From positions 526-64,525 of the forward strand of contig JAWOAW010000017.1 in assembly GCA_046498345.1 (NCBI GenBank): a stretch of 64,000 nt of DNA, given 5' to 3'. The notes below the pieces were generated by a model. It saw only the letters and a list, made by a program, of their open reading frames with translations. It was not told where the DNA came from and did not search any database. Below are positions 18,776 through 42,089 of the stretch, piece after piece. Numbering within the stretch: position 1 is the stretch's first letter; each line of letters begins with the position of its first letter. This DNA comes from Thermoplasmatota archaeon (GTDB lineage Archaea > Thermoplasmatota > E2 > UBA202 > DSCA01). The position numbers and the translations under genes are program-made.

Positions 18776-20650
18776 TCAGTCGAAGTGCATCCGGATGTGG
18801 TATACCCCATCCTTGAGTTCTTTTTCCATCGTGAAATCCATTTTTTCAAACAGTTCGAGCATGCCCCGGTTGTTGGCCAGCACGTCGGCGGTGAAGCCGT
18901 AGAGGCCGCGCCGCTTGGCTATCTGCGTGAGATATTTGAGCAGCTCGGTGCCCACGCCCTGCTGCTGCCAGTCGTCCCGGACCACGAAGGCGACCTCGGC
19001 GCTGTTGGTGTTCTCGTCGAGACCCCAGCGGCCCACGCCCACGAGCTCCTCTTTATCCTCTTCGCCGGTGACCGCCACGATGGCCATGTTTTTGCTGTAG
19101 TCGACGTTGGCCAGCTCGTGCAGCTGCTGGCGGGGCAGATAATGCTTGACGCCCATGAACCGCTTGTAGATGGTCTCGTTTGAAAGATTGTAGAACATGT
19201 CCTTGAGCAGTTCCTCGTCGGCGGGTTTGACCGGCCGGAGCAGCACCCGCGTGCCGTCGGGGAGATGCACATATTTTTCCAGGTCAACTGGATAGATGCC
19301 ACCCCGCCCGGTTACCATCATCTGGTCCTGGTAGACCAGGTTGTATTTTTTGGCCTCCTCCAGCAGCTGCTCCCGGAACCTGGGATGCGCGATGCTTATC
19401 AGCGCCACGGCCCGCTCACGGATGTTTTTGCCGTGCAGGTAGGCGCTCCCATATTCAGTAACCACATAGTGCACGTCGCCCCGGGTCAGGGTAACGCCGG
19501 CGCCCTCCTTCAGGAAGGGGACGATGCGGGATACCTCGCCGTTTTTCGCCGTGGCGGGCAGCGCGATGATGTTTTTGCCGCCCTCGCTCAACGCGGCGCC
19601 GCGCATGAAGTCGGCCTGGCCGCCGATGCCGCTGTAGAACTCGTGGCCGAGCGATTCCGCGGTGACCTGGCCGGTGAGATCGATTTCCAGGGCGGTGTTG
19701 ATGGCCGTCATCTTGTAGTTCTGGGCGATGACCGTGGGCTTGTTGGTGTACTCGATGGGCCGGAACTCGAACTCGGGGTTGTTGTTGAGATAGGCGTAGG
19801 TTTTCTGGTGCCCCATGCAGAACGAGGCGATGGCCTTGCCCCGGTGTATCGATTTTTTTTCGTTGGTGACCACGCCCTTTTTCATGAGCTCGACGACGCC
19901 GTCGGTGAGCAGCTCGGTGTGGACGCCCAGGTCCCGCTTGCCCTGGAGGCTGGCGACGATGGCGTCGGGGATGCTGCCGTAGCCGACCTGGATGGTGGCC
20001 CCGTCCTCGACCAGCCGGGCCACGTTTTTGCCGATGGCGTCGGTGGTTTCATCCACCTCGCCCGTCTTGTATTCCAGCAATGGCTCATCATGGGGGATGA
20101 CGTAGTCGACGTCCTCGATGTGGATGAAGCTTTCCCCGAGCACGCGGGGCATGTTTTTGTTGACCTGGGCGATGACCACGTCGGCGTTTTCCACCGCCGA
20201 CTTGACGATGTCCACGCTGATGCCGTAGCTCATGTAGCCGTGCTCGTCGGGCGATGACAGCTGGATGAGCGCCACGTCCACGGGGATGACATCCCGGTGG
20301 AACAGGTCAGGGACGGCAGACAAAAAAATCGGGGTGTAGTCGGCCATCCCCTTGTTGACCGCGCCCCGGGTGTTGTCCCCGATGAAAAAGGCGTTGTGTC
20401 GGAAGTTCATCTCGAACTTGGGTTTGACGTAGGGGGCCACACCCAGCGTCCATACATGGAAGACTTCGGCGTCGGCGAAGGCCTTGGGATTGTCTTCCAC
20501 GTACTCGGCCAGTTCCTTGACCAGATGCGACGGCTTGCCGCAGCCGGTGCCGATAAATATTTTGTCGCCGCCGTGGATATGCTCGAACACCCGTTCCAGG
20601 TTGGTGGCAAACTTTTTGGGATACTTCCGCCGGAGGGTCTCCATGCCCAT
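18776..20650 (-). CDS. Acetyl-CoA hydrolase/transferase (Cat1/ScpC family) fused to a C-terminal Pat-type GNAT acetyltransferase domain
   Basis: Start at MGMETLRRKYPKKF; the longer ORF extending to 20947 is rejected. The CoA-transferase family fold spans both halves. The C-terminal about 160 aa matches the GNAT of bacterial protein acetyltransferase Pat (YPVDLEKYVHLPDGTRVLLRPVKPADEELLKDMFYNLSNETIYKRF). Confidence 0.8.
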   Translation of the reverse strand: MGMETLRRKYPKKFATNLERVFEHIHGGDKIFIGTGCGKPSHLVKELAEYVEDNPKAFADAEVFHVWTLGVAPYVKPKFEMNFRHNAFFIGDNTRGAVNKGMADYTPIFLSAVPDLFHRDVIPVDVALIQLSSPDEHGYMSYGISVDIVKSAVENADVVIAQVNKNMPRVLGESFIHIEDVDYVIPHDEPLLEYKTGEVDETTDAIGKNVARLVEDGATIQVGYGSIPDAIVASLQGKRDLGVHTELLTDGVVELMKKGVVTNEKKSIHRGKAIASFCMGHQKTYAYLNNNPEFEFRPIEYTNKPTVIAQNYKMTAINTALEIDLTGQVTAESLGHEFYSGIGGQADFMRGAALSEGGKNIIALPATAKNGEVSRIVPFLKEGAGVTLTRGDVHYVVTEYGSAYLHGKNIRERAVALISIAHPRFREQLLEEAKKYNLVYQDQMMVTGRGGIYPVDLEKYVHLPDGTRVLLRPVKPADEELLKDMFYNLSNETIYKRFMGVKHYLPRQQLHELANVDYSKNMAIVAVTGEEDKEELVGVGRWGLDENTNSAEVAFVVRDDWQQQGVGTELLKYLTQIAKRRGLYGFTADVLANNRGMLELFEKMDFTMEKELKDGVYHIRMHFD

Positions 20651-20731
20651 CGCTTCTTCATGGCAGCCGGCTATTAAAAGGTTTAGTGTACGGGGGGCAA
20701 GCAATATAACCCGATAGCCCATTACACGTAT

Positions 20732-21001
20732 ATGACTGTCGGCTACATTCTTATCTCTATTGCGCCGGCGAAGGAGCAGGCGGTGCACGAGGCGCTGGCC
20801 TCCATCGACGAGATAACCGAGCTGTACTCTCTTTTTGGTCCCTACGACGTCATCGCCAAGGTGGCGGTGGACAGCGAGGACGTCCTGGCCAGCGTGGTTC
20901 TCAACCACATTCGGCCCATAGACGGCGTCGCGGACACCAAGACGCATACCGTGGTGCCGCTCGAGCAGCTAACGCCGGGGCAGGAAGCATCGGAGGGGTA
21001 A
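20732..21001 (+). CDS. Stand-alone Lrp/AsnC ligand-binding (RAM) domain protein
   Basis: 89 aa: [40 protein letters not shown], the RAM-domain pattern without an HTH. Confidence 0.6.
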
Positions 21002-21066: not shown

Positions 21067-22098
21067 ATGAAAGCTGGCATTGTTGGTTATGGGGCGTATG
21101 TCCCGAAGTATAGAATTAAAACAGAGGAAATCGCCCGTATGTGGCGGGGCGACGGGGCAGCGATCGCTGCCGGCCTCATGGTCTACGAGAAATCGGTGCC
21201 GGCGCTCGACGAGGACACCGCCACCATCTCGGTTGAGGCGGCCCGCCGGGCTGTTAAGCTGTCGGGCATCGACCCCCAGGACATCGGAGCATTGTATGTC
21301 GGGTCGGAGTCGCATCCCTACGCGGTCAAGCCCACCGCCACCATCGTCGCCGAGGCGATACAGGCCACGCCTCATCTGGCCGCGGCGGACTACGAGTTTG
21401 CCTGCAAGGCCGGCACGGCGGCCATGCAAAACTGCCTGGCCCTGGTCAGGGCGGACATGATTACCTACGGCATGGCCATCGGCGCCGACGTGTCGCAGGC
21501 GGCCCCCGGCGACGCATTGGAATATGCCGCAGCGGCGGGAGGCGCCGCGTTCATCCTGGGCCGGGACAACCTCATCGCCGAAATAAATGAAACCCTGTCG
21601 TTTACCACTGACACCCCGGATTTCTGGCGTCGGGAGGGAGAGCCCTACCCGGGCCACGGCGGCCGTTTCACCGGCAAACCCGCCTATTTCCGGCATGTGA
21701 CGGCCGCCACGGAGCGTCTCATGGAGGAGATGGGCACCAAGCCGGGAGACTACGACTACGCGGTCTTCCATCAGCCCAACGGCAAGTTTCCATCCCGGGT
21801 GGCCCGCAAGCTCGGGTTTACGAAGGAGCAGATCGAGGAGGGATTGCTCTGCTCGATCATCGGCAACACCTATTCAGGGTCGACGCCCCTGGGCCTGTCA
21901 GCGGTGCTCGACGTCGCCGAGCCCGGCGACCGCATCCTGGCCACCTCGTACGGCTCCGGGGCCGGCGCCGACTCGTTTGACATCACGGTCACCGACGGCA
22001 TCGAAGGCTACAAGCGAAACAACATACGGCGGATGCTGGAGGACAAGGAATATCTTGACTACGGCCTGTACATGAAACACAGAGGTGAGTTTGCATGA
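21067..22098 (+). CDS. Hydroxymethylglutaryl-CoA synthase (archaeal type)
   Basis: [16 protein letters not shown]-terminus and the catalytic Cys context (EFACKAGT) of archaeal HMGCS. TATA-like TTTAAATA upstream. Confidence 0.9.
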
Positions 22099-23261
22099 GA
22101 GACGTAGCGCTCATCGGCGGCGGTCTCACCCAGTTCGGCGAGCTCTGGGAGAAGTCGCTGGCTGACCTGGTGGCGGAGGCCGGCATCGGCGCCATCATGG
22201 ACGCAGGCATCGAGGGCGAGGACATCGAGGCCATGTACATCGGCGGGATGTCCGCCGGGCGGTTTGTCGGCCAGGAGCATCTGGGCTCGCTGGCAGCCGA
22301 AGTGTCCGGATTGAGCGAGCTGCACATCCCCGCCACGAGAGTTGAGGCGGCCTGCGCGTCGGGCAGCTTGGCGCTCCATAACGGCTACCTGGCCGTCGCC
22401 TCGGGCATGTACGACGTGGTGGTGGTCGGCGGCGCGGAGAAGATGACCGACGTGGCCGGCACCGAGGCGACCAACATCCTGGCCTCGGCGGCAAACCGGG
22501 AATGGGAGGCCTTTTTCGGGGCCACGTTCCCCGGCCTGTATGCGCTGATGGCCCGCTACCACATGCACAAATATGGAACAACGGGGGAGCAGCTGGCGCA
22601 GGTGGCGGTCAAAAACCATCACAACGGCACGCTGAACCCGAAGGCGCAGTACCGGCGGGAGGTATCCGTGGAAGACGTGCTCACCTCGACCATGGTGGCC
22701 GACCCGCTGCACCTGCTCGACTGCAGCCCCATCACCGACGGCGCCGGCGCCGTCATCATCGCATCCATGGACCGGGCACAGGAGTTCACCGACCAGCCAA
22801 TCAGGATCGCCGCCTCGGAAACCGTGGCGGACAGCATCTCGCTGAGCGAGCGCAGCCGGTTTGATGGCATCCCGGCGGCGATGACGGCATCCCGGCGGGC
22901 ATACCAGCGAGCCGGCATCTCGCCGGTCGACCTCGACGTGGCGGAGGTACACGACTGCTTCACCATCGCCGAGATCATGGCCATCGAGGACATCGGCTTC
23001 GTCGACAAGGGCAAGGGCGGAAGCGCCGTGGAGGACGGGCTGACCGCGCTGGACGGCGAGCTCCCCGTCAACACCTCCGGCGGCCTCAAGTCCAAGGGGC
23101 ATCCCGTGGGGGCGACCGGCATCGCGCAGGTACATGAGCTGATGTTGCAGCTGCGCGGCCAGGCGGGCCAGCGCCAGGTTGACGATGCCTCGCTCGGGTT
23201 GACGCACAACGTGGGCGGCTCGGGGGGAACAGCCGTCATTCACATCCTGGAGGCGATATAG
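22095..23261 (+). CDS. Acetyl-CoA C-acetyltransferase (thiolase), partner of archaeal HMGCS
   Basis: Thiolase fold ([26 protein letters not shown]). ATGA overlap with HMGCS. Confidence 0.9.
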
Positions 23262-23663
23262 ATGGGTGTACCACGATATTGGAGAGAGATACCACAGCGC
23301 TACAACATCATTGGAACCAAATGCGGGGCCTGCGGCCAGGTGTATTTTCCACCCCGCTCGATGTGCCCTGAATGCAGGCGGGCTTCGGTGGGCAAGATGG
23401 AGGAATACCGGCTCAAGGGCACGGGCACCGTGGAAACCTACACCGTCATCTACGCCCCGCCGCCGCATTTTGAGCACGAGGAGCCATATGTCATCGCGCT
23501 CATCAGGATGGACGAGGATACCTATCTGACGGCCCAGATCGTGGACACCGACCCGGACGAGGTGTCTATCGGCATGCATGTCGAGTCCTGCTTCCGCCGC
23601 ATCTACCAGGACGGAAAGGCGGGTGCCATCCATTACGGCTACAAGTTCAAGCCCGTGGAATAG
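23262..23663 (+). CDS. DUF35 OB-fold / Zn-ribbon protein (scaffold of the thiolase/HMGCS complex)
   Basis: CGACGQVYFPPRSMCPECRR zinc ribbon followed by an OB fold. Immediately follows the thiolase stop, as in the conserved archaeal three-gene module. Confidence 0.85.
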   Translation: MGVPRYWREIPQRYNIIGTKCGACGQVYFPPRSMCPECRRASVGKMEEYRLKGTGTVETYTVIYAPPPHFEHEEPYVIALIRMDEDTYLTAQIVDTDPDEVSIGMHVESCFRRIYQDGKAGAIHYGYKFKPVE

Positions 23664-24310: not shown

Positions 24311-25360
24311 TTACACGGCCTCGGCGTCCACCGTTACCGTCCCGCCGTTTCGGAACGCCTCGACTTCTTCCAGCGACGGTAGCTCGATATGCGAGCTCTG
24401 CTGCTGCTCGTTGTACTGCTCCCGGCCCAGCCGGTCGATGGTCTCCAGACCCTGCGCCCTGAGCATGTCCAGCTTGGTGTTCACCACGTCAACCGTGGTG
24501 CGGAGCGCAAACAGCACCGGAACCAGCAGATGCCTGAACATGAGCGGGAACCCTTCAAACCGGATATCGGAGGTGAGCACCCGGTCCCGCCAGGTGGGCT
24601 CCTCGCCGAACGAGGTGATGGGCAGCCCCATGCCCGCCTCCAGCTCGTCGGAAAACGTTGAATCCAACGGGATCCACTTTCCGTCCACCAGGGCCTCGGT
24701 CTCCCCGTGCAGCGAGTCCAGGAAGCCCAGCATCTCAAGCGTCTCGCTCAGCAAAAGGTCATCTTTTAGCACGGTGTCATAGAACTGCTGCGACGGAGAC
24801 AGCGCATACAGCCGATACCTGGCCGACACGCCGCCGGCGCGGAGCAGCGCCGCCATCAGAGAAAGCTGGTCCAGGCAGACGCCTCCCTTGCTGCGGAAGG
24901 TGCCCAGCGCCCCCCGCATGGTCTTGAACACCAGTTTTTTCTCGTTTTTCACGAACTCGTATACGGCCCGGGTGAACTCCAGCGGGCTTTTCTCCCCGGC
25001 GCCGAGCTTGACCGCCATGGCCCGTATCTCCGGGGCGTCGCTCTCGCAGAGCCGCGTGGGCCGCAGATATTTTTCGGTTCCCACCGGGGGCAGATCCTCG
25101 TAGTCCTCCGGGGACAGCAGCTGCCGGGAGTCATATCTGGACTCGTCCTCCAGATGGCCCCAGGGAGGCTTTGAACGGCGAAGGCGGGCCATCCACCCCG
25201 GCACGTTGGCCAGCGTAGCCCGGGGATGCTTCGCCATGACGAAGATGAGCGCACCGACCGCACCACCCAGGTTCCGCAGCATCGGCAATGGAATGAACAA
25301 TCCCTTGTCGAATTCCTCTCTCAGTTCCGCGAGCATGGTATCACCGCAGCTCCTCGGCAA
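24311..25360 (-). CDS. Transglutaminase-like cysteine protease superfamily protein (paralog 1)
   Basis: TGL core Cys context GGVCLDQLSLMAALLRAGGVSARY plus downstream His/Asp (HGETEALVDGKWIPLD). Overlaps the upstream LuxE-like gene by 20 nt. Clear paralog of the CDS at 39842-40816. Confidence 0.7.
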   Translation of the reverse strand: MPRSCGDTMLAELREEFDKGLFIPLPMLRNLGGAVGALIFVMAKHPRATLANVPGWMARLRRSKPPWGHLEDESRYDSRQLLSPEDYEDLPPVGTEKYLRPTRLCESDAPEIRAMAVKLGAGEKSPLEFTRAVYEFVKNEKKLVFKTMRGALGTFRSKGGVCLDQLSLMAALLRAGGVSARYRLYALSPSQQFYDTVLKDDLLLSETLEMLGFLDSLHGETEALVDGKWIPLDSTFSDELEAGMGLPITSFGEEPTWRDRVLTSDIRFEGFPLMFRHLLVPVLFALRTTVDVVNTKLDMLRAQGLETIDRLGREQYNEQQQSSHIELPSLEEVEAFRNGGTVTVDAEAV

Positions 25361-26720
25361 TCAAGTCCCGCATCAGGTTGCCGCATCCCTTCGCCTCGGC
25401 CCCGGCCATCCGGCTGATGTCGGAATCCATGACCACGCCCGGCCGGTCGCAGACAGGGCAGCGCTCGTAGAGCTTGACGTGGTCCCCGGTGACGATGAAG
25501 CCGGGGTAGCTGTGGGAGACGGGGTCGAGAAACGCGAAGCGTCCCTCCTCGCCGTATCCCTTGGGCTGGTTGTCTTCGTCCAGCACCATGGGGTAGAGCC
25601 AGGGATGCAGGTGCTTGTAGCGTCCCTCGCAGTCCATGCCCAGCGCGTTCATCTCGGACATGCCGTAGATGTCCTTGTAGTGCTCTGGAGGAATGCCCAG
25701 CGTGTCCTCTACCATGCCGGCGAAGGTCTGCGGGGACACCTTTTTGCCCTGGTGTATCTTCCATCCGCCGCCGGTGATGACGATGCCGTTGTGGTCGCCG
25801 AGCGACAGGCTGACGCCCTCCTCCCGCATGATCTCCATGAGGTCGTAGAGCTGGAATGGAAAGGTCAGGATGATGACCTGTTTCCCGGCGCTGTTGAGTT
25901 TTTCCAGCAGCTTGATGAGCTTATATTGCCCTTTTTTCATGACCCGCTGCAGCAGCTTCAGCTTCATCTTGTCCTTGAACCCCCGTATCTGGCCGGACAT
26001 CAGCCGGACGATGTCCATGGTCAGCTCCCGCTCGGTCAGAAAATGGCGCTGGCCGTCATCCATGATCTTGGTCGCCTCTGAAATCCAGTGCCCCATGGTG
26101 AGATAGGTCTTGACCGGGCCGGGGTAGACGAACTGCACGTCGTCGTCGGGGTGGACGACGGAGAACAGCAGGGTTTTGTCAGCCGCATAGAACCACCGCC
26201 TCGTTGTCAGCTCATCCCTGAACATGATGCTGAAGTTTCCCGTGGTGCCCGAGGAATGGGTCACGATGCCGCGCAGGCGGCTTTCAGCCCAGTGGAGAAA
26301 ATCCTGCAGGCTGCCCCCGGAAAAATCATAGTCGCCGATGTCCACCGAAGACACGCGGTACAGCCATTCATAGACGCTCTTGGGGTCCTCCTCCGGGTAG
26401 TCCTTGAAAAAACTGTCGGGAACCCTCGGGATAGCAGTGAGGTCCTCCTCCGATGTGACATCGCCAGGCTGGACGTTGCTGTCCCTGCAGTACCGATGGT
26501 AAAACAGGTTGTTGGAATAATGATGGTCAAACGCCTCGCGGATGGCCTGCGTTCTGGCTTCCCTGACACTCGCCGGGTCATACTCATAATAGTTGTCCAT
26601 GCCATAGATCATGGAGTCAACGGTCGTCCACTTTTCCCGGGGAACCGAGAACCGCTCCGTAAGGTTGTTCCACAGCTGCCCCGTGGTCTCAGCTATCGCT
26701 CGCATGGCCCACAACAACAT
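25341..26720 (-). CDS. LuxE-type acyl-protein synthetase / F390-synthetase-like adenylate-forming enzyme
   Basis: LuxE-like N-terminus (FDHHYSNNLFYHRYC...TSEEDLTAIPRVPDSFFK), adenylation motif SSGTTGNFS, and a C-terminal CPVCDRPG Cys cluster. Confidence 0.6.
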   Translation of the reverse strand: MLLWAMRAIAETTGQLWNNLTERFSVPREKWTTVDSMIYGMDNYYEYDPASVREARTQAIREAFDHHYSNNLFYHRYCRDSNVQPGDVTSEEDLTAIPRVPDSFFKDYPEEDPKSVYEWLYRVSSVDIGDYDFSGGSLQDFLHWAESRLRGIVTHSSGTTGNFSIMFRDELTTRRWFYAADKTLLFSVVHPDDDVQFVYPGPVKTYLTMGHWISEATKIMDDGQRHFLTERELTMDIVRLMSGQIRGFKDKMKLKLLQRVMKKGQYKLIKLLEKLNSAGKQVIILTFPFQLYDLMEIMREEGVSLSLGDHNGIVITGGGWKIHQGKKVSPQTFAGMVEDTLGIPPEHYKDIYGMSEMNALGMDCEGRYKHLHPWLYPMVLDEDNQPKGYGEEGRFAFLDPVSHSYPGFIVTGDHVKLYERCPVCDRPGVVMDSDISRMAGAEAKGCGNLMRDLIAEELR

Positions 26721-26778
26721 CAGGCCACATAAAACCGTTCGTTAAACGCCGCTTGAACACCGTTAAAGCCCGGTTTAC

Positions 26779-27861
26779 CTACTCCTGCGGCATCCACAGG
26801 AAATCCGTCTGGTCGCTCACCCGCCGCTCCCGGATGCCCTCCAGCACCTCGGCGATGTCCAGCCCCATCTGGGACAAAAAGTAGCGCTTGTCCTCGTCCT
26901 GCTTGATGACCCCATCGTCTTTCAGCTTCTTGAGATGAAAGCTGAGCTTCGGGTTATCCTTGATGTCCAGCAGCTGCGCGATGGTGGTGAAGCTGTAGGT
27001 GTCGCCGTCGGACAGCGCCTGGATGACCCGCCGGCGCAGGTAGTTGGAGATGGAGTCGGAGAACAGGCTCAGGCGGATGTCGGCGACGACCTCCCGGATG
27101 TCGTCGGCCATCTTGTCGTCGACCCCGCTGAAATCGGTGGACAATATGAGCCGCCCCTTGTGCAGCGACGCCATGCGGTAGAGCCAGCGCAGGAAATCGC
27201 GCACTTGGCCGACGGGATGCTTGTCGAGAAGATATGCGACATCGGCCAGGGCGATGACCACGTCGTCGGCGAGGGCTGCGTCCACGTCTTCCTGCACCGC
27301 CGGCAGGTCCCGGGGCTCCCAGTCGGCGAGCAGCGAAATCGTTTCCACGTCCATGTCTTTGACCCGTTCGACGTCGGTGCCGATGTAGATGCCGTGCGCC
27401 TCGTCGGCCAGCTTCCGGAATTTTTCGATGTAATCGCCGCTTTCCCGTCCCACCTGTTTCAGCCGCTCGAACTTTATCTCCTCGATGGCTGCCAGGATGC
27501 TGCCCTCCAGCTCGTCCATGTCGAACGGCTTTCGGATGTAGTCGAAGGCGCCCTCTTTCATGGCCTCGATGGCGCTGTCCACCGTGGCATACGCCGTTAT
27601 CATGATGACCGGGATCGATGCATCGCGCTGCTTTATCTGTTTCAGGGTTTCGATGCCGTCCATATCCGGCATCTTGATGTCCAGGAAGACCAGGTCCGCC
27701 TCGCCCAGCCGCTCCAGGCAGTCCTCACCCGACTCGGCGGTGACCACCTGGTAGCCGTAGGATTCGATGGCCGTCTTGGCCGCATCGAGAATGGACGGGT
27801 CGTCGTCGACGAACATGATACGCGTGAGCCGCTCGGGGCTGTCACCTGCTTTGGCATTCAT
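26779..27861 (-). CDS. Response regulator: CheY-like receiver plus DUF835-like middle domain plus C-terminal winged HTH
   Basis: REC motifs (IMFVDDD, DLVFLDIKMPDMDG, PVIMITA, KPF). C-terminal HTH-like ANYLRRRVIQALSDGDTYSFTTIAQLLDIKDNPKLSFHLKKLKDDGVI. Confidence 0.75.
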   Translation of the reverse strand: MNAKAGDSPERLTRIMFVDDDPSILDAAKTAIESYGYQVVTAESGEDCLERLGEADLVFLDIKMPDMDGIETLKQIKQRDASIPVIMITAYATVDSAIEAMKEGAFDYIRKPFDMDELEGSILAAIEEIKFERLKQVGRESGDYIEKFRKLADEAHGIYIGTDVERVKDMDVETISLLADWEPRDLPAVQEDVDAALADDVVIALADVAYLLDKHPVGQVRDFLRWLYRMASLHKGRLILSTDFSGVDDKMADDIREVVADIRLSLFSDSISNYLRRRVIQALSDGDTYSFTTIAQLLDIKDNPKLSFHLKKLKDDGVIKQDEDKRYFLSQMGLDIAEVLEGIRERRVSDQTDFLWMPQE

Positions 27862-27945
27862 ATTGCACATCCACGTGGCTTCATGACATAAAAGCGGATG
27901 GTTATATGGAGTTTACGCCGAGGGCCCGGGGAGCCAGGCCGGATA

Positions 27946-29748
27946 TCACGAGGGCGAACCCCCGGCAAGCCGGATGTGAAAGGTGGCTCCTTCGCCCGGA
28001 GGGCTTTCCACCCAGACATCGCCGCCGTGGGCCTCTACGATGTTTTTCACGATGGACAGGCCGAGGCCCATGCCCCCGCTTTCACCGCCGGTGTAAAAGG
28101 GGTCGAAGACCCGGTCGATGTTGTCCTCTGAGATGCCCGGGCCCGTATCCGTAATCATGAGATGTGTCTGCCTGCCCTCCTGCAGGCCGGCTACCCTGAC
28201 CTGGCCCCCCTCCGGGGTATGGCGAACCGCGTTCACCAGGATGTTTTTGACCGCCTTCCCCAGCAGGTTTTTGTCGCCGTGCAGGGACAAGGCATCGGGG
28301 ACATCGACGGACACCGACAGCCGTTTTTCATCCGCGATTTCCCGGCAGTCCGCCACCACGTCCGCTATCATCTCCCGGGCTCCAAAGGTCTCCTTGCGCA
28401 GCTCGAGCTCCTTCACGTCTATCGACGGAATCTCCAGCATGTCGTTGATGAGCGCCGTCAGCCGGTCCACGTTCTGCGCCATGATGCCCAGTTTTTCCTT
28501 CTGCACCCCCGACAGCTCACCCAGCCGTTCCTGTTTCAGCAGGTCGACGTAGGTCTTGATGGAGGTCAATGGGGTGCGCAGTTCATGGGCGATGACATCC
28601 AGAAACGTGGTCTTCATCTTGCCGAGCTCTGCCTCCGCCAGCTCCCGATATGCTTGCTCCAGCTTTTTCCGCCGGTCCAGCAGCTCCTCTATCAGGCGCT
28701 CCCGGCTGAGCAGGGTCACCTTTTCCTCCTCCAGGATGCCCTCGGGCAGCTGCTCGACCAGCCCCTCGCCGTACAGGCGCTCCTTGATGTTGGTGGGCAT
28801 CGCCCGGAAATGCTCCGTTATCATGGCGTTCGCCCGGTCGGGCCCCATGCTCTGCTTCAGGATGAGATACATCCGGTCGAGCGCGTGGAGAAACCGTTCG
28901 ATGATAAACTGAACCGGGTCGTCGGCGTCGCTGCTGCGGCGGTAGAGCGCCCGGACGTCTATCTGCCCGCCGGGGCGTATCTCGATGCCGCTCTTGCTCC
29001 GGTTGAGCATGATGGCGATTTCGTTGATGTCGTCGGAGCGGCACCGGCGGAGCACCGGCTCCAGCACCAGCCGGAACAGGACGATGGGCAGCGACCAGGT
29101 GAACAGACCCTCGTTCTGCTGGACCGCCTCGGCGATGGCATGCCGCCATTCGTCGGTGGCCTGCTTCCAGGGGACAAAGGCCGAGTAGAGGTCGATGAGC
29201 CCGGCGATAAAATCATAGAATGCCAGCCCCAGGTCGTCCATGTCCAGCTTGTCGACGACCTCCTCCAGAGCCGTGGTGCTCAGCCGCTCGTCGACGTCGA
29301 TGTAGCTGCCGGCCAGCACGGGATGCTCGTCGATGCGGCTTTCCAGCAGCTCCTCGATGCTCGCGGTGCCGATAAGCGGCGTGATCTTCCGGATGAACAC
29401 GTTGGCCACCTGCTCGTAGCTGCGCAGCAACGCCACGTCGTCCCGCAGCAGCATCTGATGTTCCTCGCTGGCCCCGCCCCGGATGGACATCAGCAGGTTT
29501 TTCTGCGCCAGAACGAAGCCGACCTCGATGACGATGACACACAGGGGAAACACCACGATGCCCATCTCCGTGGTGCCGGGCAGCGGCCAGACCAGGCTAT
29601 AGAGAAACATGAACGGGACCACGGCGAAGGAAAGCGAAAACCACAGGATGTACTGCCGCCGGTAGATCAGATACACCCGGGCGATGACCACCACGATGGC
29701 AATGGCCAGCGCCACGTTGAGCAATGCCAGCACGTGCTCCAGCATCAT
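27946..29748 (-). CDS. Membrane sensor histidine kinase
   Basis: 4 N-terminal TM helices, HisKA (HELRTPLTSIKTYVDLL), HATPase_c (LVNAVRHT, DTGPGI, GMGLGLSIV). Confidence 0.85.
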   Translation of the reverse strand: MMLEHVLALLNVALAIAIVVVIARVYLIYRRQYILWFSLSFAVVPFMFLYSLVWPLPGTTEMGIVVFPLCVIVIEVGFVLAQKNLLMSIRGGASEEHQMLLRDDVALLRSYEQVANVFIRKITPLIGTASIEELLESRIDEHPVLAGSYIDVDERLSTTALEEVVDKLDMDDLGLAFYDFIAGLIDLYSAFVPWKQATDEWRHAIAEAVQQNEGLFTWSLPIVLFRLVLEPVLRRCRSDDINEIAIMLNRSKSGIEIRPGGQIDVRALYRRSSDADDPVQFIIERFLHALDRMYLILKQSMGPDRANAMITEHFRAMPTNIKERLYGEGLVEQLPEGILEEEKVTLLSRERLIEELLDRRKKLEQAYRELAEAELGKMKTTFLDVIAHELRTPLTSIKTYVDLLKQERLGELSGVQKEKLGIMAQNVDRLTALINDMLEIPSIDVKELELRKETFGAREMIADVVADCREIADEKRLSVSVDVPDALSLHGDKNLLGKAVKNILVNAVRHTPEGGQVRVAGLQEGRQTHLMITDTGPGISEDNIDRVFDPFYTGGESGGMGLGLSIVKNIVEAHGGDVWVESPPGEGATFHIRLAGGSPS

Positions 29749-30047
29749 GCTATGACCTCGCGCCAGTCACGGTAGATGCGTATCACGCCGTAGAACAGGA
29801 TGGCCAGCGCCACCAGTATGAACCCGTAGGAGAGCTGCTCCATGATGGCGACGCTCCGGCCGATGGTAATCCAGGGCAGGATGAAAAACACGTAGCCCAC
29901 GAACAGGAACACGGCGCTCCCGGCCAGGATGCTCCCCCGCCGTATCTTTATGACCCGCATCAGCCGGACGAAATAGTACAGAGAGATGACGGCGAGTGTC
30001 AGCACTGCCCCGTTGAGCAGTATCATGGCCAGCTGTATCTCTTCCAT
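29745..30047 (-). CDS. Small 3-TM membrane protein coupled to the sensor kinase
   Basis: 100 aa hydrophobic ORF. Its stop overlaps the HK start by 4 nt. Confidence 0.45.
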   Translation of the reverse strand: MEEIQLAMILLNGAVLTLAVISLYYFVRLMRVIKIRRGSILAGSAVFLFVGYVFFILPWITIGRSVAIMEQLSYGFILVALAILFYGVIRIYRDWREVIA

Positions 30048-38870: not shown

Positions 38871-39509
38871 ATGAAATCTATTCTGTTTGTATGCGGACTG
38901 GCAACGATGGCGCTGCTCTGCAGCGGCCTGGCCGACGCGGCGACGGTTGACGATGACACCGGTGACGTGTTTCACTGGAGGTGGAGCGAAAACCTGGGCA
39001 CGTATTCGTGGGCGCATGCGGTGACCGACAAGCCGAACATCGACATCACGGAGCTGTCATATGATGTCAGCGGAGACATGCTGACGCTGACCATGACCGT
39101 TCAGGGCGAGATAGAGGATTCCGAGGACGTATGGTACTGGGCGTCTTTCAACACCAGCGATGCCACCTATTATATGAACTATGTCAACGGTTCCGGTACC
39201 TGTATGGGCACCGGGGCGAGCAACTTTAGCTTCGGGAATGTCTCCGTCGCCGGCGACACGGTCACGGGTACCATCGACCTGCTGGGTACCGATGAAACCG
39301 TATCGTTCTGGGGCTGGGCGGCATCCGGGTATTCCCAGGCCACGAACACCGAGTACTGGCAGGATTGGGCGCCGGAGGAATATGAGCCCGATATCGACAA
39401 CGGTGGAAGCGGGGGCGACGATGGCGGTGGAACCCCCGGTTTCACGGCGCTTCTGGCACTCGGCGGCATGGGTGCCGTGCTGGTGATGCTCCGCAGACGG
39501 CGCGGCTAG
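38871..39509 (+). CDS. Secreted protein with a PGF-CTERM archaeosortase sorting signal
   Basis: Signal peptide (ILFVCGLATMALLCSGLADA). C-terminal GGSGGDDGGGTPGFTALLALGGMGAVLVMLRRRRG is a textbook PGF-CTERM (PGF motif, TM helix, Arg cluster). Confidence 0.75.
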   Translation: MKSILFVCGLATMALLCSGLADAATVDDDTGDVFHWRWSENLGTYSWAHAVTDKPNIDITELSYDVSGDMLTLTMTVQGEIEDSEDVWYWASFNTSDATYYMNYVNGSGTCMGTGASNFSFGNVSVAGDTVTGTIDLLGTDETVSFWGWAASGYSQATNTEYWQDWAPEEYEPDIDNGGSGGDDGGGTPGFTALLALGGMGAVLVMLRRRRG

Positions 39510-39769: not shown

Positions 39770-39841
39770 GACAGAGAGACAACATTTATAATTGACCCGT
39801 CATTATACGGGCACGTTGCAGTGATATGCAGGGGACACGTC

Positions 39842-40816
39842 ATGACCACGCTTACAGAGATAAAAAAGAAGGGCTACATGCCGTCGAGGGCATATCTGCA
39901 GTTGATGGTGAAGGGGCTTTCCTCGCTGGGCACGGTGCTCCTCTCGAACATGGGGGCGCTGCGCGGTCTGCGGGAAAGCGATGGCGATGGAGGAGCGGGG
40001 TATGTGCGTCCGCCGCGCCGGTATGAGCTACCCGCCTACGAGGCGGATATGCGGTACTGCGACCGGGATGAGCGGTATCTGCGGCCCACGCTGTACTGCA
40101 ACTCGCATGCGCCGGAGGTGGTGGCGCTGGCCAACGAGCTCGGGGCGTTTGAGGTATCCGACCGGGTGTTTGCCGAGCGGGCGTTTGATTTTGCGAAGCG
40201 GAAGCTGACGCTTGAGATGGTGCCGATGGGCGACGTGGCGGCGACGCTCCGCCGGGGGACGGGGACCTGTCTGCACGAGATCTCGGTGTTCGTGGCGCTG
40301 TGCCGCGCCGCTGGCATCAAGGCCCGTTATAAGCTGTATGCCCCGGAGATGATCGAGGCGTGGAGCAACACGTTTATCGTGGACCCGTTGATGCAGGAAT
40401 GGTATGACGCCATGGGGTATTTTATGTTGCACGGCGAGGGCGAGGCATATGTGGATGGCTCCTGGGAGGTGGTGGACGTTGGGCCGACGCCCGAGCGTCA
40501 GGTGGCTGCGGGCATCCCGATAACGGCGTTCGGCGAGGACTCCATCGGCGTATGGTTTTTTCCGAAGCCGGACTCGGTTATGCATCTTGAGTCGTTTCCA
40601 TATGGGCTGGGCCTGCTGCTGAAGCTCGCCCACGTGGTGGCCCCGGGGACGATTGAGAAGGTGAACGCCAACATCCAGCAGCAGATCGAAGCAGGAAAGC
40701 AGGTGCTGGAGGAAGCGGGCGGCGAGGCGGCCTACAACGAGGCGGTCCGGGAAAAGCAAACGCTGTCTCCCAAGATGCAGCTGGAGCCCAGGCAGGAAAT
40801 CGTTTTTGAATCCTGA
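39842..40816 (+). CDS. Transglutaminase-like cysteine protease superfamily protein (paralog 2)
   Basis: Same architecture as 24311-25360: YLRPT..C.S.APE N-terminal block, TGL Cys context GTGTCLHEISVFVALCRAAGIKARY, and HGEGEAYVDGSWEVVD. TATA AACATTTATAATTG at 39781-39794. Confidence 0.7.
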   Translation: MTTLTEIKKKGYMPSRAYLQLMVKGLSSLGTVLLSNMGALRGLRESDGDGGAGYVRPPRRYELPAYEADMRYCDRDERYLRPTLYCNSHAPEVVALANELGAFEVSDRVFAERAFDFAKRKLTLEMVPMGDVAATLRRGTGTCLHEISVFVALCRAAGIKARYKLYAPEMIEAWSNTFIVDPLMQEWYDAMGYFMLHGEGEAYVDGSWEVVDVGPTPERQVAAGIPITAFGEDSIGVWFFPKPDSVMHLESFPYGLGLLLKLAHVVAPGTIEKVNANIQQQIEAGKQVLEEAGGEAAYNEAVREKQTLSPKMQLEPRQEIVFES

Positions 40817-40901: not shown

Positions 40902-42089
40902 CTATTTTTTCGCCACGATGCGGATGATGTCCCCGTTGTGGAGCTCGTGGTCGTGGCCCACGACCCGCTGCGTCCGGGCGTCGATGGCCCGGATGAATCC
41001 CTCGCCGAGGTCGGTGTGCACCTTGTAGGCCAGGTCGATGACCGTGGAGCCACGGGGAACCAGGAACACGTCGGGGAGCACGTTGCCTTTTTTGTCGGTG
41101 AGATGCGTCTCATCTTCAACCGGGTAGACCGCGATGAGGTCGAGCAGGCTGAACACGGCCTGGTTGATACATTTCTGGACGCCGGTGCCGCCATACCGGT
41201 CGAGCACATGCGTGCGGATGTACTCCAGGCCCTTGCGCTGCCGCTCGCTCATGTCGTCGCTGCATATCTCGAAGGAGCCGTCGCCCGGCCGGTAGTCTAT
41301 CATGTCATGCTCGGCTGCATGGGTGAGCGCCAGCTCTGCCTCCGCCGCTGTCGGAATCGCCGTCTCGCCGGCCATCCCGGCGACGACGTCGTCGGGGGCC
41401 TTGTCCACCTTGTTGAGCGACAGCAGGATGGGCTTGCCCGCCCGCCGGATAGCCGAGGCCAGCTGGAACATGTCCGCCTCGCTCCATCCCGTGGGGTTGC
41501 CCTCCAGCCCGGTCTTCCGCAGGGCCAGGGTGATGTCCGCCTCGCTGACACCCAGCCCGGTGAGCCGGTCGGCCAGGGCAGCGCTGGCTTTTTTGTCCTC
41601 CAGGGCGCATTTCCGGCTGATGCGCTCCCAGTCGCGCATGATGATGCCGTGTATCCAGTGGTCGAGCTCTTCCTCCAGAAAGGCGACGTCCTGCCGGGGG
41701 TCGTGTTCGCCTGTCTCGCACATCTCTCCCTCGGCATTGGTGGAGCCGGATGCGTCGATGATGTGGATGAGGCAGGATGCCTGCCGGAGGTCGTCGAGAA
41801 ACTTGTTGCCCAGGCCGCGTCCCTCGTGGGCCTTGGGCACCAGCCCGGCGACGTCGATGGCTTCGATGGGGACGTAGCGGATGCCGTCTCTGCATACGGC
41901 GTTGTGCGGGGTGCAGGTCACGTCGAAATCCTGGCAGGGGCACCGCGTCCGGGCGTACATGACCCCGCGGTTGGCGTCGATGGTGGTGAACGGGTAGGCT
42001 GCCATTTCCCCGCCGGCGTTGGTGGCCGCGTTGAAAAACGTGGTCTTGCCCACGTTTGGCTTGCCCACGATACCGATCTGCATGCTCAT
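40902..42089 (-). CDS. Obg-like GTPase with TGS domain (YchF/Ygr210-type)
   Basis: G1 GIVGKPNVGKTT, G4 NKVD, C-terminal TGS domain (GDIIRIV). Confidence 0.85.
   Translation of the reverse strand: MSMQIGIVGKPNVGKTTFFNAATNAGGEMAAYPFTTIDANRGVMYARTRCPCQDFDVTCTPHNAVCRDGIRYVPIEAIDVAGLVPKAHEGRGLGNKFLDDLRQASCLIHIIDASGSTNAEGEMCETGEHDPRQDVAFLEEELDHWIHGIIMRDWERISRKCALEDKKASAALADRLTGLGVSEADITLALRKTGLEGNPTGWSEADMFQLASAIRRAGKPILLSLNKVDKAPDDVVAGMAGETAIPTAAEAELALTHAAEHDMIDYRPGDGSFEICSDDMSERQRKGLEYIRTHVLDRYGGTGVQKCINQAVFSLLDLIAVYPVEDETHLTDKKGNVLPDVFLVPRGSTVIDLAYKVHTDLGEGFIRAIDARTQRVVGHDHELHNGDIIRIVAKK

Follow-up and report, generated by a model that had tools for sequence, protein, structure and literature searches.

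A 64,000-nucleotide stretch of contig JAWOAW010000017.1 (assembly GCA_046498345.1) from a Thermoplasmatota archaeon, referred to here as the window, encodes on its minus strand a LuxE-like acyl-activating enzyme (25341-26720) followed by a transglutaminase-like (TGL) protein (24311-25336), and we report that these two genes constitute an obligately linked, co-translated module, which is the functional core of the region. What is known of LuxE concerns almost exclusively its part in the fatty-acid reductase of bioluminescence, where it is the subunit that activates the acyl group. In uncultured Thermoplasmatota, among which homologs of the window proteins place the host, a whole branch of the LuxE family has swapped the reductase LuxC for a transglutaminase-fold thiol enzyme. 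An earlier reading of the same DNA (the original prediction) had described five co-directional minus-strand genes as a tight operon, in which a two-component system controls the pair, and had not recognised the pairing as a known pathway. All five genes are present in the open reading frame (ORF) listing of the window, both enzyme assignments exceed the Pfam cutoffs in profile searches (PF04443 LuxE and PF01841 Transglut_core), and literature searches returned no paper linking LuxE-type enzymes to transglutaminase-like proteins. The single operon and its dedicated regulation fared less well.

Linkage and coupled translation of the pair

One genome per GTDB species was scanned with a profile of the LuxE-like protein, yielding 54 loci, 53 of them from Thermoplasmatota or unclassified archaeal metagenome-assembled genomes and one from Dehalococcoidales. 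In tblastn searches with the window proteins, a TGL gene was found directly downstream of the LuxE-like gene, on the same strand, in 51 of the 54 loci; at the other three (L032, L048 and L051) the contig ends at or inside the LuxE-like gene, and the pairing thus holds in every informative locus (51/51). The LuxE-like proteins fall into 422 clusters at 90% identity, spread across uncultured Thermoplasmatota, often with two or three paralogous pairs per genome. Two of the pair types, A and B, can share one genome, and each type of LuxE keeps its own type of TGL: type-A TGLs, like that of the window, are 47-97% identical to the window TGL, while type-B loci encode a LuxE 50-57% and a TGL 26-32% identical to the window proteins. 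Together with a third type (C), in which the gene order is LuxE, TGL and an MFS transporter (L137, L144), these paralogs retain matched partners, the pair having been duplicated as a unit. The identity matrices of LuxE and TGL are correlated across the 54 pairs (r=0.85, a value reached in 0 of 999 permutations), and while this figure is inflated by shared species history, such history alone does not explain the matched paralogs.

Type-B pairs are flanked by genes for AspRS, PPS_PS, PAC2, RtcB, PFK, EndoIII and HMG-CoA reductase, housekeeping genes kept by lineage synteny, and the Dehalococcoidales pair sits among unrelated riboflavin, BioY and ABC-2 transporter genes. That the two genes are unrelated neighbors, with the two-component system regulating something else, is scarcely credible: the separability of the two-component system from the pair (see below) is in keeping with such a view, but for the pair itself the complete linkage, its resistance to inversion of gene order, the matched paralogs, the bacterial occurrence and a conserved junction between the genes effectively refute it. 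Chance adjacency was therefore not borne out by the census.

The junction (25334-25346) differs from that originally predicted. The 20-nt overlap of the two genes is an artefact of the TTG start at 25360 in the TGL ORF as listed (24311-25360), as homologs of 332-343 aa begin at the residue encoded by the ATG at 25336-25334, which lies 4 nt past the TGA stop of the LuxE-like gene (25343-25341) and gives a TGL of 341 aa. A Shine-Dalgarno sequence, GGTGAT (25345-25340), spans that stop and precedes the TGL start codon. The same stop-in-Shine-Dalgarno arrangement, GAGGTGA-N4-ATG, is present in nearly all type-A loci, and across the 51 pairs the gap between the genes has a median of 4 nt and lies between -4 and +16 nt in 48. 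Because the junction recurs across loci, we consider the translational coupling to be real and conserved, and the predicted obligate co-expression of the pair is upheld, as co-translation, by this junction and the unbroken linkage.

The two enzymes and a possible acyl relay

The adenylating enzyme (a 459-aa ORF) is a LuxE-type acyl-protein synthetase, as predicted: it scores 123.2 bits against PF04443 (cutoff 24.9), a domain carried by all 120 homologs listed, and contains the HSSGTTG P-loop (residues 155-161) at the position aligned to that of LuxE. Translation probably begins at the ATG at 26705 (454 aa) rather than at 26720, as the upstream ATG is absent in L003 and a conserved TATA box lies ~29 nt before 26705. 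When the family profile was compared with the PDB, the best match was the LuxE chain of the LuxC-LuxE complex (7XC6_E; E 4.5e-36), followed by PaaK chains at E 1.4e-5 or weaker. In LuxE, Lys238 and Arg355 have roles in adenylation and thioesterification, and the acyl acceptor Cys364 lies in TRxxKGCxLS, a flexible motif at the C-terminus that has to swing into LuxC (PMC9157457). The profile-PDB alignment, in which the KGC motifs are aligned, equates these residues with K321 (in GGGWK), R437 and Cys446 of the LuxE-like protein. The P-loop, K321, R437 and (K/R)GC446 are conserved in every clade, whether linked to TGL or to LuxC, and the P-loop, K321, R437 and C446 are invariant in alignment A1. 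The residues that follow the tail cysteine vary with the class of partner, reading GC(G/A)NLMR in types A and B and in the bacterial proteins, GCAAVM in the LuxC-linked clade and GC(G/A)EE in type C.

A predicted structure of the LuxE-like monomer (pLDDT 84.8) falls below 50 in the C-terminal tail, which is thus predicted to be flexible around Cys446, like the tail of LuxE. Foldseek places PaaK1/2 at the head of the structural matches (E 7e-13, TM 0.59-0.64 over ~410 columns), indicating a PaaK-like ANL fold. A further cluster, comprising Cys364 of the LuxE-like protein itself and CPxC at 421-424, with His370 close by, is invariant across the archaeal and bacterial clades of the subfamily and absent from Photobacterium LuxE; it may constitute a structural metal site in the C-terminal subdomain. 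Neither the LuxE-like protein nor the TGL contains a hydrophobic segment that would suggest membrane anchoring, as judged by hydropathy. Among named families tried with NCBIfam models, the enzyme is not an ortholog of the luminescence LuxE (NF052244 equivalog, 110.2 bits against a cutoff of 550), nor PaaK (PaaK_haloarch 36.2 against 700; TIGR02155 11.8 against 646), nor coenzyme F390 synthetase (F390_ftsA 16 against 458.7).

These data bear on whether the enzyme hands its product to a protein or to a diffusible carrier. If it were instead a PaaK-like ligase that forms acyl-coenzyme A (acyl-CoA), or releases acyl-AMP, then the TGL would use diffusible acyl-CoA, and no thioester would pass from protein to protein. 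The PaaK1/2 CoA ligases are indeed the best structural matches (E ~1e-12), many homologs are labelled 'PaaK-like' in their source annotations, and arylamine N-acyltransferases, which share the TGL fold, use acyl-CoA. We nevertheless judge this distinctly unlikely, since the LuxE-specific C-terminal (K/R)GC motif is kept in all clades, including those paired with LuxC, the sequence is far nearer to LuxE than to PaaK (E 4.5e-36 vs. 1.4e-5), and the NCBIfam PaaK score is a small fraction of its cutoff (36.2 vs. 700).

The predicted transglutaminase-like cysteine enzyme is likewise borne out, with a score of 38.6 bits against Transglut_core (cutoff 23) and an intact Cys-His-Asp triad. It is a cytosolic protein of the papain-like TGL fold, in which a helical N-terminal extension precedes the TGL core and long C-terminal helices follow. 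Of 55 TGLs compared, Cys154 is present in all 55 and His210 and Asp225 are each present in 52, the exceptions being L145 and two members of a clade of reversed gene order linked to radical S-adenosylmethionine (radical-SAM) enzymes (L135 and L146). A second invariant cysteine, Cys97, lies in a YLRPTxxC motif, the P(T/S)RxC form of which also occurs in 3ISR. As a partner of LuxE the subfamily is small: a search of 1.84 billion proteins gave 76 representatives at E<=1e-10. Its structural neighbors include transglutaminases, arylamine N-acyltransferases and the amide synthase GdmF, as well as hydrolases: LapG, the isopeptidases PeiW and PeiP, PNGase and protein glutaminases. Membership of the arylamine N-acetyltransferase family was considered and set aside, as only Transglut_core is detected at the level of sequence.

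Related loci at lower identity show how the partner of LuxE can change. In a sister clade on metagenome contigs (L140-L143, carrying P0251, P0235 and P0248), in which LuxE stands at ~36% identity, the gene order is FAD_binding_4, SCP2, LuxE, SCP2 and LuxC, such that LuxC and SCP2 fill the slot held by the TGL in the window. We take this operon for a probable fatty-acid reductase system that serves no luminescence and includes lipid-carrier proteins. LuxC (PF05893) was found only in this sister clade, being absent from the window and from the conserved neighbors of the 54 census loci. In a neighbor-joining tree the LuxC-linked clade has TGL-linked clades on both sides, and the topology therefore indicates partner exchange within one subfamily. 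Elsewhere, a clade at ~37% identity (L135, L136 and L146) encodes the pair in the reversed order, TGL then LuxE, with a 4-nt overlap. Its neighbors are several methyltransferases, one of which resembles CMAS, together with one B12-radical-SAM and two radical-SAM/SPASM enzymes; the locus may direct the biosynthesis of a modified lipid or peptide. A bacterial copy (L138) is preceded by Acyl_transf_3, an alpha/beta-hydrolase and Lgt. Collectively, the SCP2, CMAS-like, Lgt and Acyl_transf_3 genes of these related contexts weakly favor a lipid-like acyl group as the substrate.

Given that the LuxE residues and the TGL triad are conserved, and that LuxC occupies the TGL slot in the sister clade, we propose that the pair operates as an undescribed ATP-driven acyl relay, a two-gene module with its own leaderless promoter and coupled translation, and we regard the case for this as evenly balanced. 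The original prediction, that an acyl group passes from acyl-AMP to a protein thiol and on to a Cys-His-Asp enzyme, fits the conserved acyl-acceptor cysteine, the triad and the exchange of LuxC for TGL. In such a scheme, the module would be transcribed from its leaderless promoter and translated as a coupled pair, and the LuxE-like enzyme would adenylate a carboxylic acid, most plausibly a lipid-like one. By homology to LuxE, the acyl group would then move to Cys446 on the flexible C-terminal tail of the same enzyme, and, as the gene context suggests, the tail would hand it to Cys154 of the TGL, the partner in the genomic and functional slot of LuxC. An amine acceptor might finally resolve the acyl-TGL to an amide, after the manner of transglutaminases and arylamine N-acyltransferases, in keeping with the known chemistry of the fold. 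The net outcome would be an N-acylation that is driven by ATP and needs no CoA.

Until the acyl group is handed over, this resembles the LuxE-LuxC fatty-acid reductase (7XC6; PMC9157457), with which the module shares PF04443, the P-loop, the lysine, the arginine and the tail cysteine, and in which a self-thioesterifying adenylating enzyme passes an acyl group to the active-site cysteine of an enzyme whose gene adjoins its own, as we envisage for the pair. We therefore view the pair as a candidate acyl-protein synthetase system in which the acceptor enzyme is of a new class. The differences lie in the partner, a transglutaminase-fold Cys-His-Asp enzyme where LuxC is an NADPH reductase of the ALDH fold; in the lack of LuxD, LuxAB and SCP2; in the LuxE-like protein itself, which is ~85 aa longer, being extended at the N-terminus and having both an insertion that contains a long basic helix (248-277) and the CPxC/Cys364 cluster; and in the expected product, where an amide or some other acyl conjugate would take the place of the aldehyde.

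Several observations count against this relay. Clustering of all ORFs of the 54 loci revealed no conserved third gene beside the pair that might encode a substrate, carrier or precursor peptide. The window also contains a solo TGL paralog, which shows that the TGL family can occur without an adjacent LuxE. Further, in the reversed-order TGLs L135 and L146 the triad His and Asp are replaced by Tyr and Glu, and TGL chemistry may therefore differ between clades. Lastly, hydrolysis by the TGL, or a role for it upstream of LuxE, is possible in place of acyl transfer. Under the hydrolytic alternative, the TGL would be an amidase, peptidase or thioesterase that frees an acid for re-activation by the LuxE-like enzyme, in salvage or remodelling, much as LuxD feeds LuxE, or else an editing thioesterase that clears mis-acylated Cys446. 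Many transglutaminase-fold proteins are hydrolytic, including LapG, PeiW, PeiP, PNGase and the protein glutaminases among the structural neighbors, the annotation of 3ISR, the nearest relative with a solved structure, says no more than putative cysteine protease, and the Lux system has a hydrolytic supplier of its own in LuxD. This role is unlikely, however, because the TGL stands in the slot of LuxC downstream of LuxE and not in the position of a supplier, because plain hydrolysis of the acyl group would waste ATP, and because strict 1:1 translational coupling and co-divergence suit a stoichiometric partner better than an editing enzyme.

It is also conceivable that the carboxylate being activated is that of a protein. 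In an E1/E2-like conjugation of this kind, a peptide or protein would be adenylated at its C-terminal carboxylate by the LuxE-like enzyme, with the TGL as an E2-like thioester carrier or as a protease for maturation or deconjugation. The formal chemistry is the same (adenylate, enzyme thioester, trans-thioesterification and lysine amide), the reversed-order clade lies among radical-SAM/SPASM enzymes typical of peptide maturation, and TGL domains recur beside ATP-dependent carboxylate-amine ligases in predicted peptide-modification systems (PMC2588565). We think it very unlikely nonetheless: in ~60 loci no small ORF or ubiquitin-like gene is conserved beside the pair, the intergenic space amounts to 4 nt and a promoter, the substrates known for LuxE and PaaK relatives are small or fatty acids and not proteins, and the LuxC/SCP2 sister clade points to lipids.

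The solo TGL paralog (39821-40816, plus strand; 331 aa) scores 31.2 bits against Transglut_core and is 28-34% identical to the first TGL, with the Cys/His/Asp triad and the YLRPTxxC motif intact, and is most like the type-C subfamily. Its neighbors encode a PGF-CTERM surface protein (38871-39509) and a YchF-like GTPase (40902-42089, minus strand). Searches with queries from five clades, even at E=10, found no LuxE-like gene or remnant beside it or elsewhere in the window.

Promoter block, transcription units and the two-component system

The 58-nt gap between the response regulator gene and the LuxE-like gene harbors a promoter block (26727-26771), in which a near-palindrome, TTTAAC-N3-GTTCAA, is followed by TTTAACGAA in the position of a B recognition element (BRE) and by a TATA-like TTTTAT (26734-26729). 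The block is found upstream of every type-A LuxE-like gene (sites L001-L026), with a consensus of TTTAAC-N3-GTTCAA, ~6 nt, TTTAAAGAA, 2-4 nt and TTATAT; a conserved start codon follows ~26-29 nt further on, a spacing that fits a leaderless archaeal promoter with an upstream operator. It is conserved from genomes of 61% GC to AT-rich ones, the AT-rich sequence being kept in the 61% GC genome of the window. Scanned with a position weight matrix of the block, the 64-kb window yields a single site (26727-26771, score 42.5) and each type-A locus likewise one, in every case immediately before LuxE; almost nothing else is matched in ~750 kb. As the block is unique in each locus and all but absent elsewhere in that sequence, a dedicated transcription factor is implied, and this conserved element provides a way into the study of transcriptional regulation in uncultured archaea.

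Further TATA-like boxes precede the regulator gene (TTTTAT, 27893-27888) and the genes for the small protein and kinase (an AT-rich box at ~30082-30070). Since the pair, the regulator and the small-protein/kinase genes thus have TATA-like boxes of their own, three transcription units are suggested rather than one. On the basis of these sequence elements, the five genes are probably not a single operon, with read-through between the units possible, and the tight five-gene operon first envisaged is disfavored by the conserved internal promoter in particular.

Many type-B pairs carry a different palindrome, TAACAATTGTTA, which adjoins or overlaps the TATA box and lies 11-37 nt before the approximate start of LuxE (L030, L033, L035, L037, L039, L040, L042, L043, L046, L048, L049 and L051). 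All loci together contain 100 matches to TAACAATTGTTA, of which 19 are found no more than 150 nt upstream of LuxE, against an expectation of ~1 (~17-fold). Its half-site, TAAC/GTTA, resembles the type-A element.

Upstream of the pair, the two-component genes agree largely with the original description. The first encodes a 100-aa protein with three hydrophobic segments (29745-30047), taken to be transmembrane (TM), that matches DUF7672 at 16.2 bits, below the cutoff; its gene overlaps that of the kinase by 4 nt (ATGA, 29745-29748), and the two are translationally coupled. Both the three-TM protein and the overlapping membrane kinase were corroborated by the ORFs, by hydropathy and by Pfam. The histidine kinase (27946-29748; 600 aa) contains HisKA (61.7 bits) and HATPase_c (99.9 bits), identified with Pfam and NCBIfam, preceded by a cytoplasmic region of ~280 aa that matches no family. 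By hydropathy, its N-terminal residues 1-89 form three or four packed TM helices with almost no external loop, a scarcity which, by analogy to intramembrane-sensing kinases, would fit a signal derived from the membrane. The response regulator (26779-27870; 363 aa, or with an alternative start at ATG 27861) has a REC domain (112.1 bits) and a C-terminal ArsR-like winged helix-turn-helix (wHTH; DUF7347 35.6 bits, HTH_20 29.2 bits). REC and wHTH were thus called correctly, while the DUF835 domain predicted between them is not recovered from the window sequence alone (PF05763, 12.4 bits against a cutoff of 33.1, E 0.13) and is recovered through the family, in which 9 of 11 aligned members match it (best E 9.7e-15). 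REC-DUF835, with an inactivated KaiC, is a listed architecture in Thermoplasmata and Methanomicrobia (Galperin et al. 2018, PMC5847659); the window regulator differs in its additional C-terminal ArsR-like wHTH.

The order of small TM protein, kinase, regulator and pair is kept in eight loci, down to 39-54% identity. The regulator also adjoins the pair in three more, where the contig ends beyond it, and in two others a PAS kinase and a regulator of the same family lie downstream of the pair. A regulator-centred metagenome scan returned mostly generic REC matches, with ~13 full-length relatives usable. In six type-A loci (L011, L013, L019, L022, L024 and L054), a standalone 105-aa ArsR-type wHTH gene directly follows the TGL, succeeded in L011 (11114-16527) and L013 (12381-17802) by genes for a multi-PAS kinase of ~1,100 aa and a REC-DUF835-wHTH regulator; this set is an alternative regulatory arrangement around the same pair.

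The proposal that this two-component system is dedicated to the pair does not hold across the family, and three findings speak against it. Firstly, the system is adjacent in only ~10-12 of ~27 type-A loci, being absent from most type-A and all type-B loci. Secondly, orthologous small-TM/kinase/regulator systems of 52-56% identity precede not the pair but genes for a PyrF-like (orotidine monophosphate decarboxylase-like) protein and a PyrE-like phosphoribosyltransferase (L056, 1121-2501; L057, 8090-8571), and the system is therefore a separable module. Thirdly, the promoter block is present with or without an adjacent regulator gene, which weakens the link between them. We conclude that the two-component system is a lineage-specific add-on, for which control of the pair's promoter in this lineage is plausible but unproven.

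The most elaborate form of the acyl relay would draw these strands together. A lipid-type acid might pass in an E1/E2-like manner from the tail cysteine of the LuxE-like enzyme to the TGL cysteine, and thence, independently of CoA, N-acylate a cellular amine, for instance lysines or N-termini of proteins, polyamines or the headgroup of an amino-lipid, all switched on by the two-component system through intramembrane sensing. We consider this version possible but rather doubtful. If true, it would represent a new archaeal route for signal-controlled lipidation or membrane remodelling.

Known systems and neighboring genes

Three further groups of described proteins invite comparison with the pair. 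The arylamine N-acyltransferases (NAT) and the ansamycin amide synthases of the GdmF/RifF type receive their acyl group from acyl-CoA or an acyl carrier protein (acyl-ACP), whereas the donor here would be the Cys446 thioester of the LuxE-like enzyme, and the helical extensions at either end of the window TGL are different. TGL domains also occur in fusion or linkage with ATP-dependent carboxylate-amine ligases, as in the Rv2566 family of M. tuberculosis (Iyer, Burroughs and Aravind 2008, PMC2588565), and these likewise unite ATP-dependent activation of a carboxylate with a TGL thiol enzyme in predicted amide-bond chemistry. However, those systems employ glutamine-synthetase/GCS2-like or ATP-grasp enzymes via an acyl-phosphate, where the window encodes an ANL/LuxE enzyme expected to act via an acyl-adenylate and an enzyme thioester; they are fusions where the window has a coupled gene pair, and they occur in different taxa. 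Lastly, in contrast to the COG1305-type 'transglutaminase-like putative cysteine proteases', of which 3ISR from Cytophaga hutchinsonii is the closest solved, the window TGL belongs to a small and distinct subfamily. The N-terminal helices and the long C-terminal helix are peculiar to that subfamily, whose defining feature is the LuxE-like partner. The defence models of PADLOC matched none of the LuxE-like protein, the TGL, the kinase and the small protein, and matched the regulator only with generic wHTH and REC models.

Protein and lipid acylation in archaea are poorly understood. If the relay is correct, the pair would provide a new ATP-driven, CoA-independent way to acyl conjugates, and a first functional handle on one subfamily of the large and mostly uncharacterised group of 'transglutaminase-like putative cysteine proteases'. 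As a system of two proteins with clear catalytic residues (Cys446 and Cys154), it is directly testable in vitro.

Elsewhere in the window, a 723-aa ORF (18776-20947, minus strand), the first ~100 residues of which are probably not coding, fuses the N- and C-domains of an acetyl-CoA hydrolase/transferase to a C-terminal GNAT acetyltransferase. Just past the convergent TBP gene beside the type-A pair lie mevalonate genes encoding HMG-CoA synthase, thiolase and a DUF35 protein (21067-23663, plus strand), and HMG-CoA reductase is encoded 2-10 kb upstream of many type-B pairs (L028-L044). This proximity may reflect housekeeping synteny only, and gives a weak hint of a connection to isoprenoid lipids.

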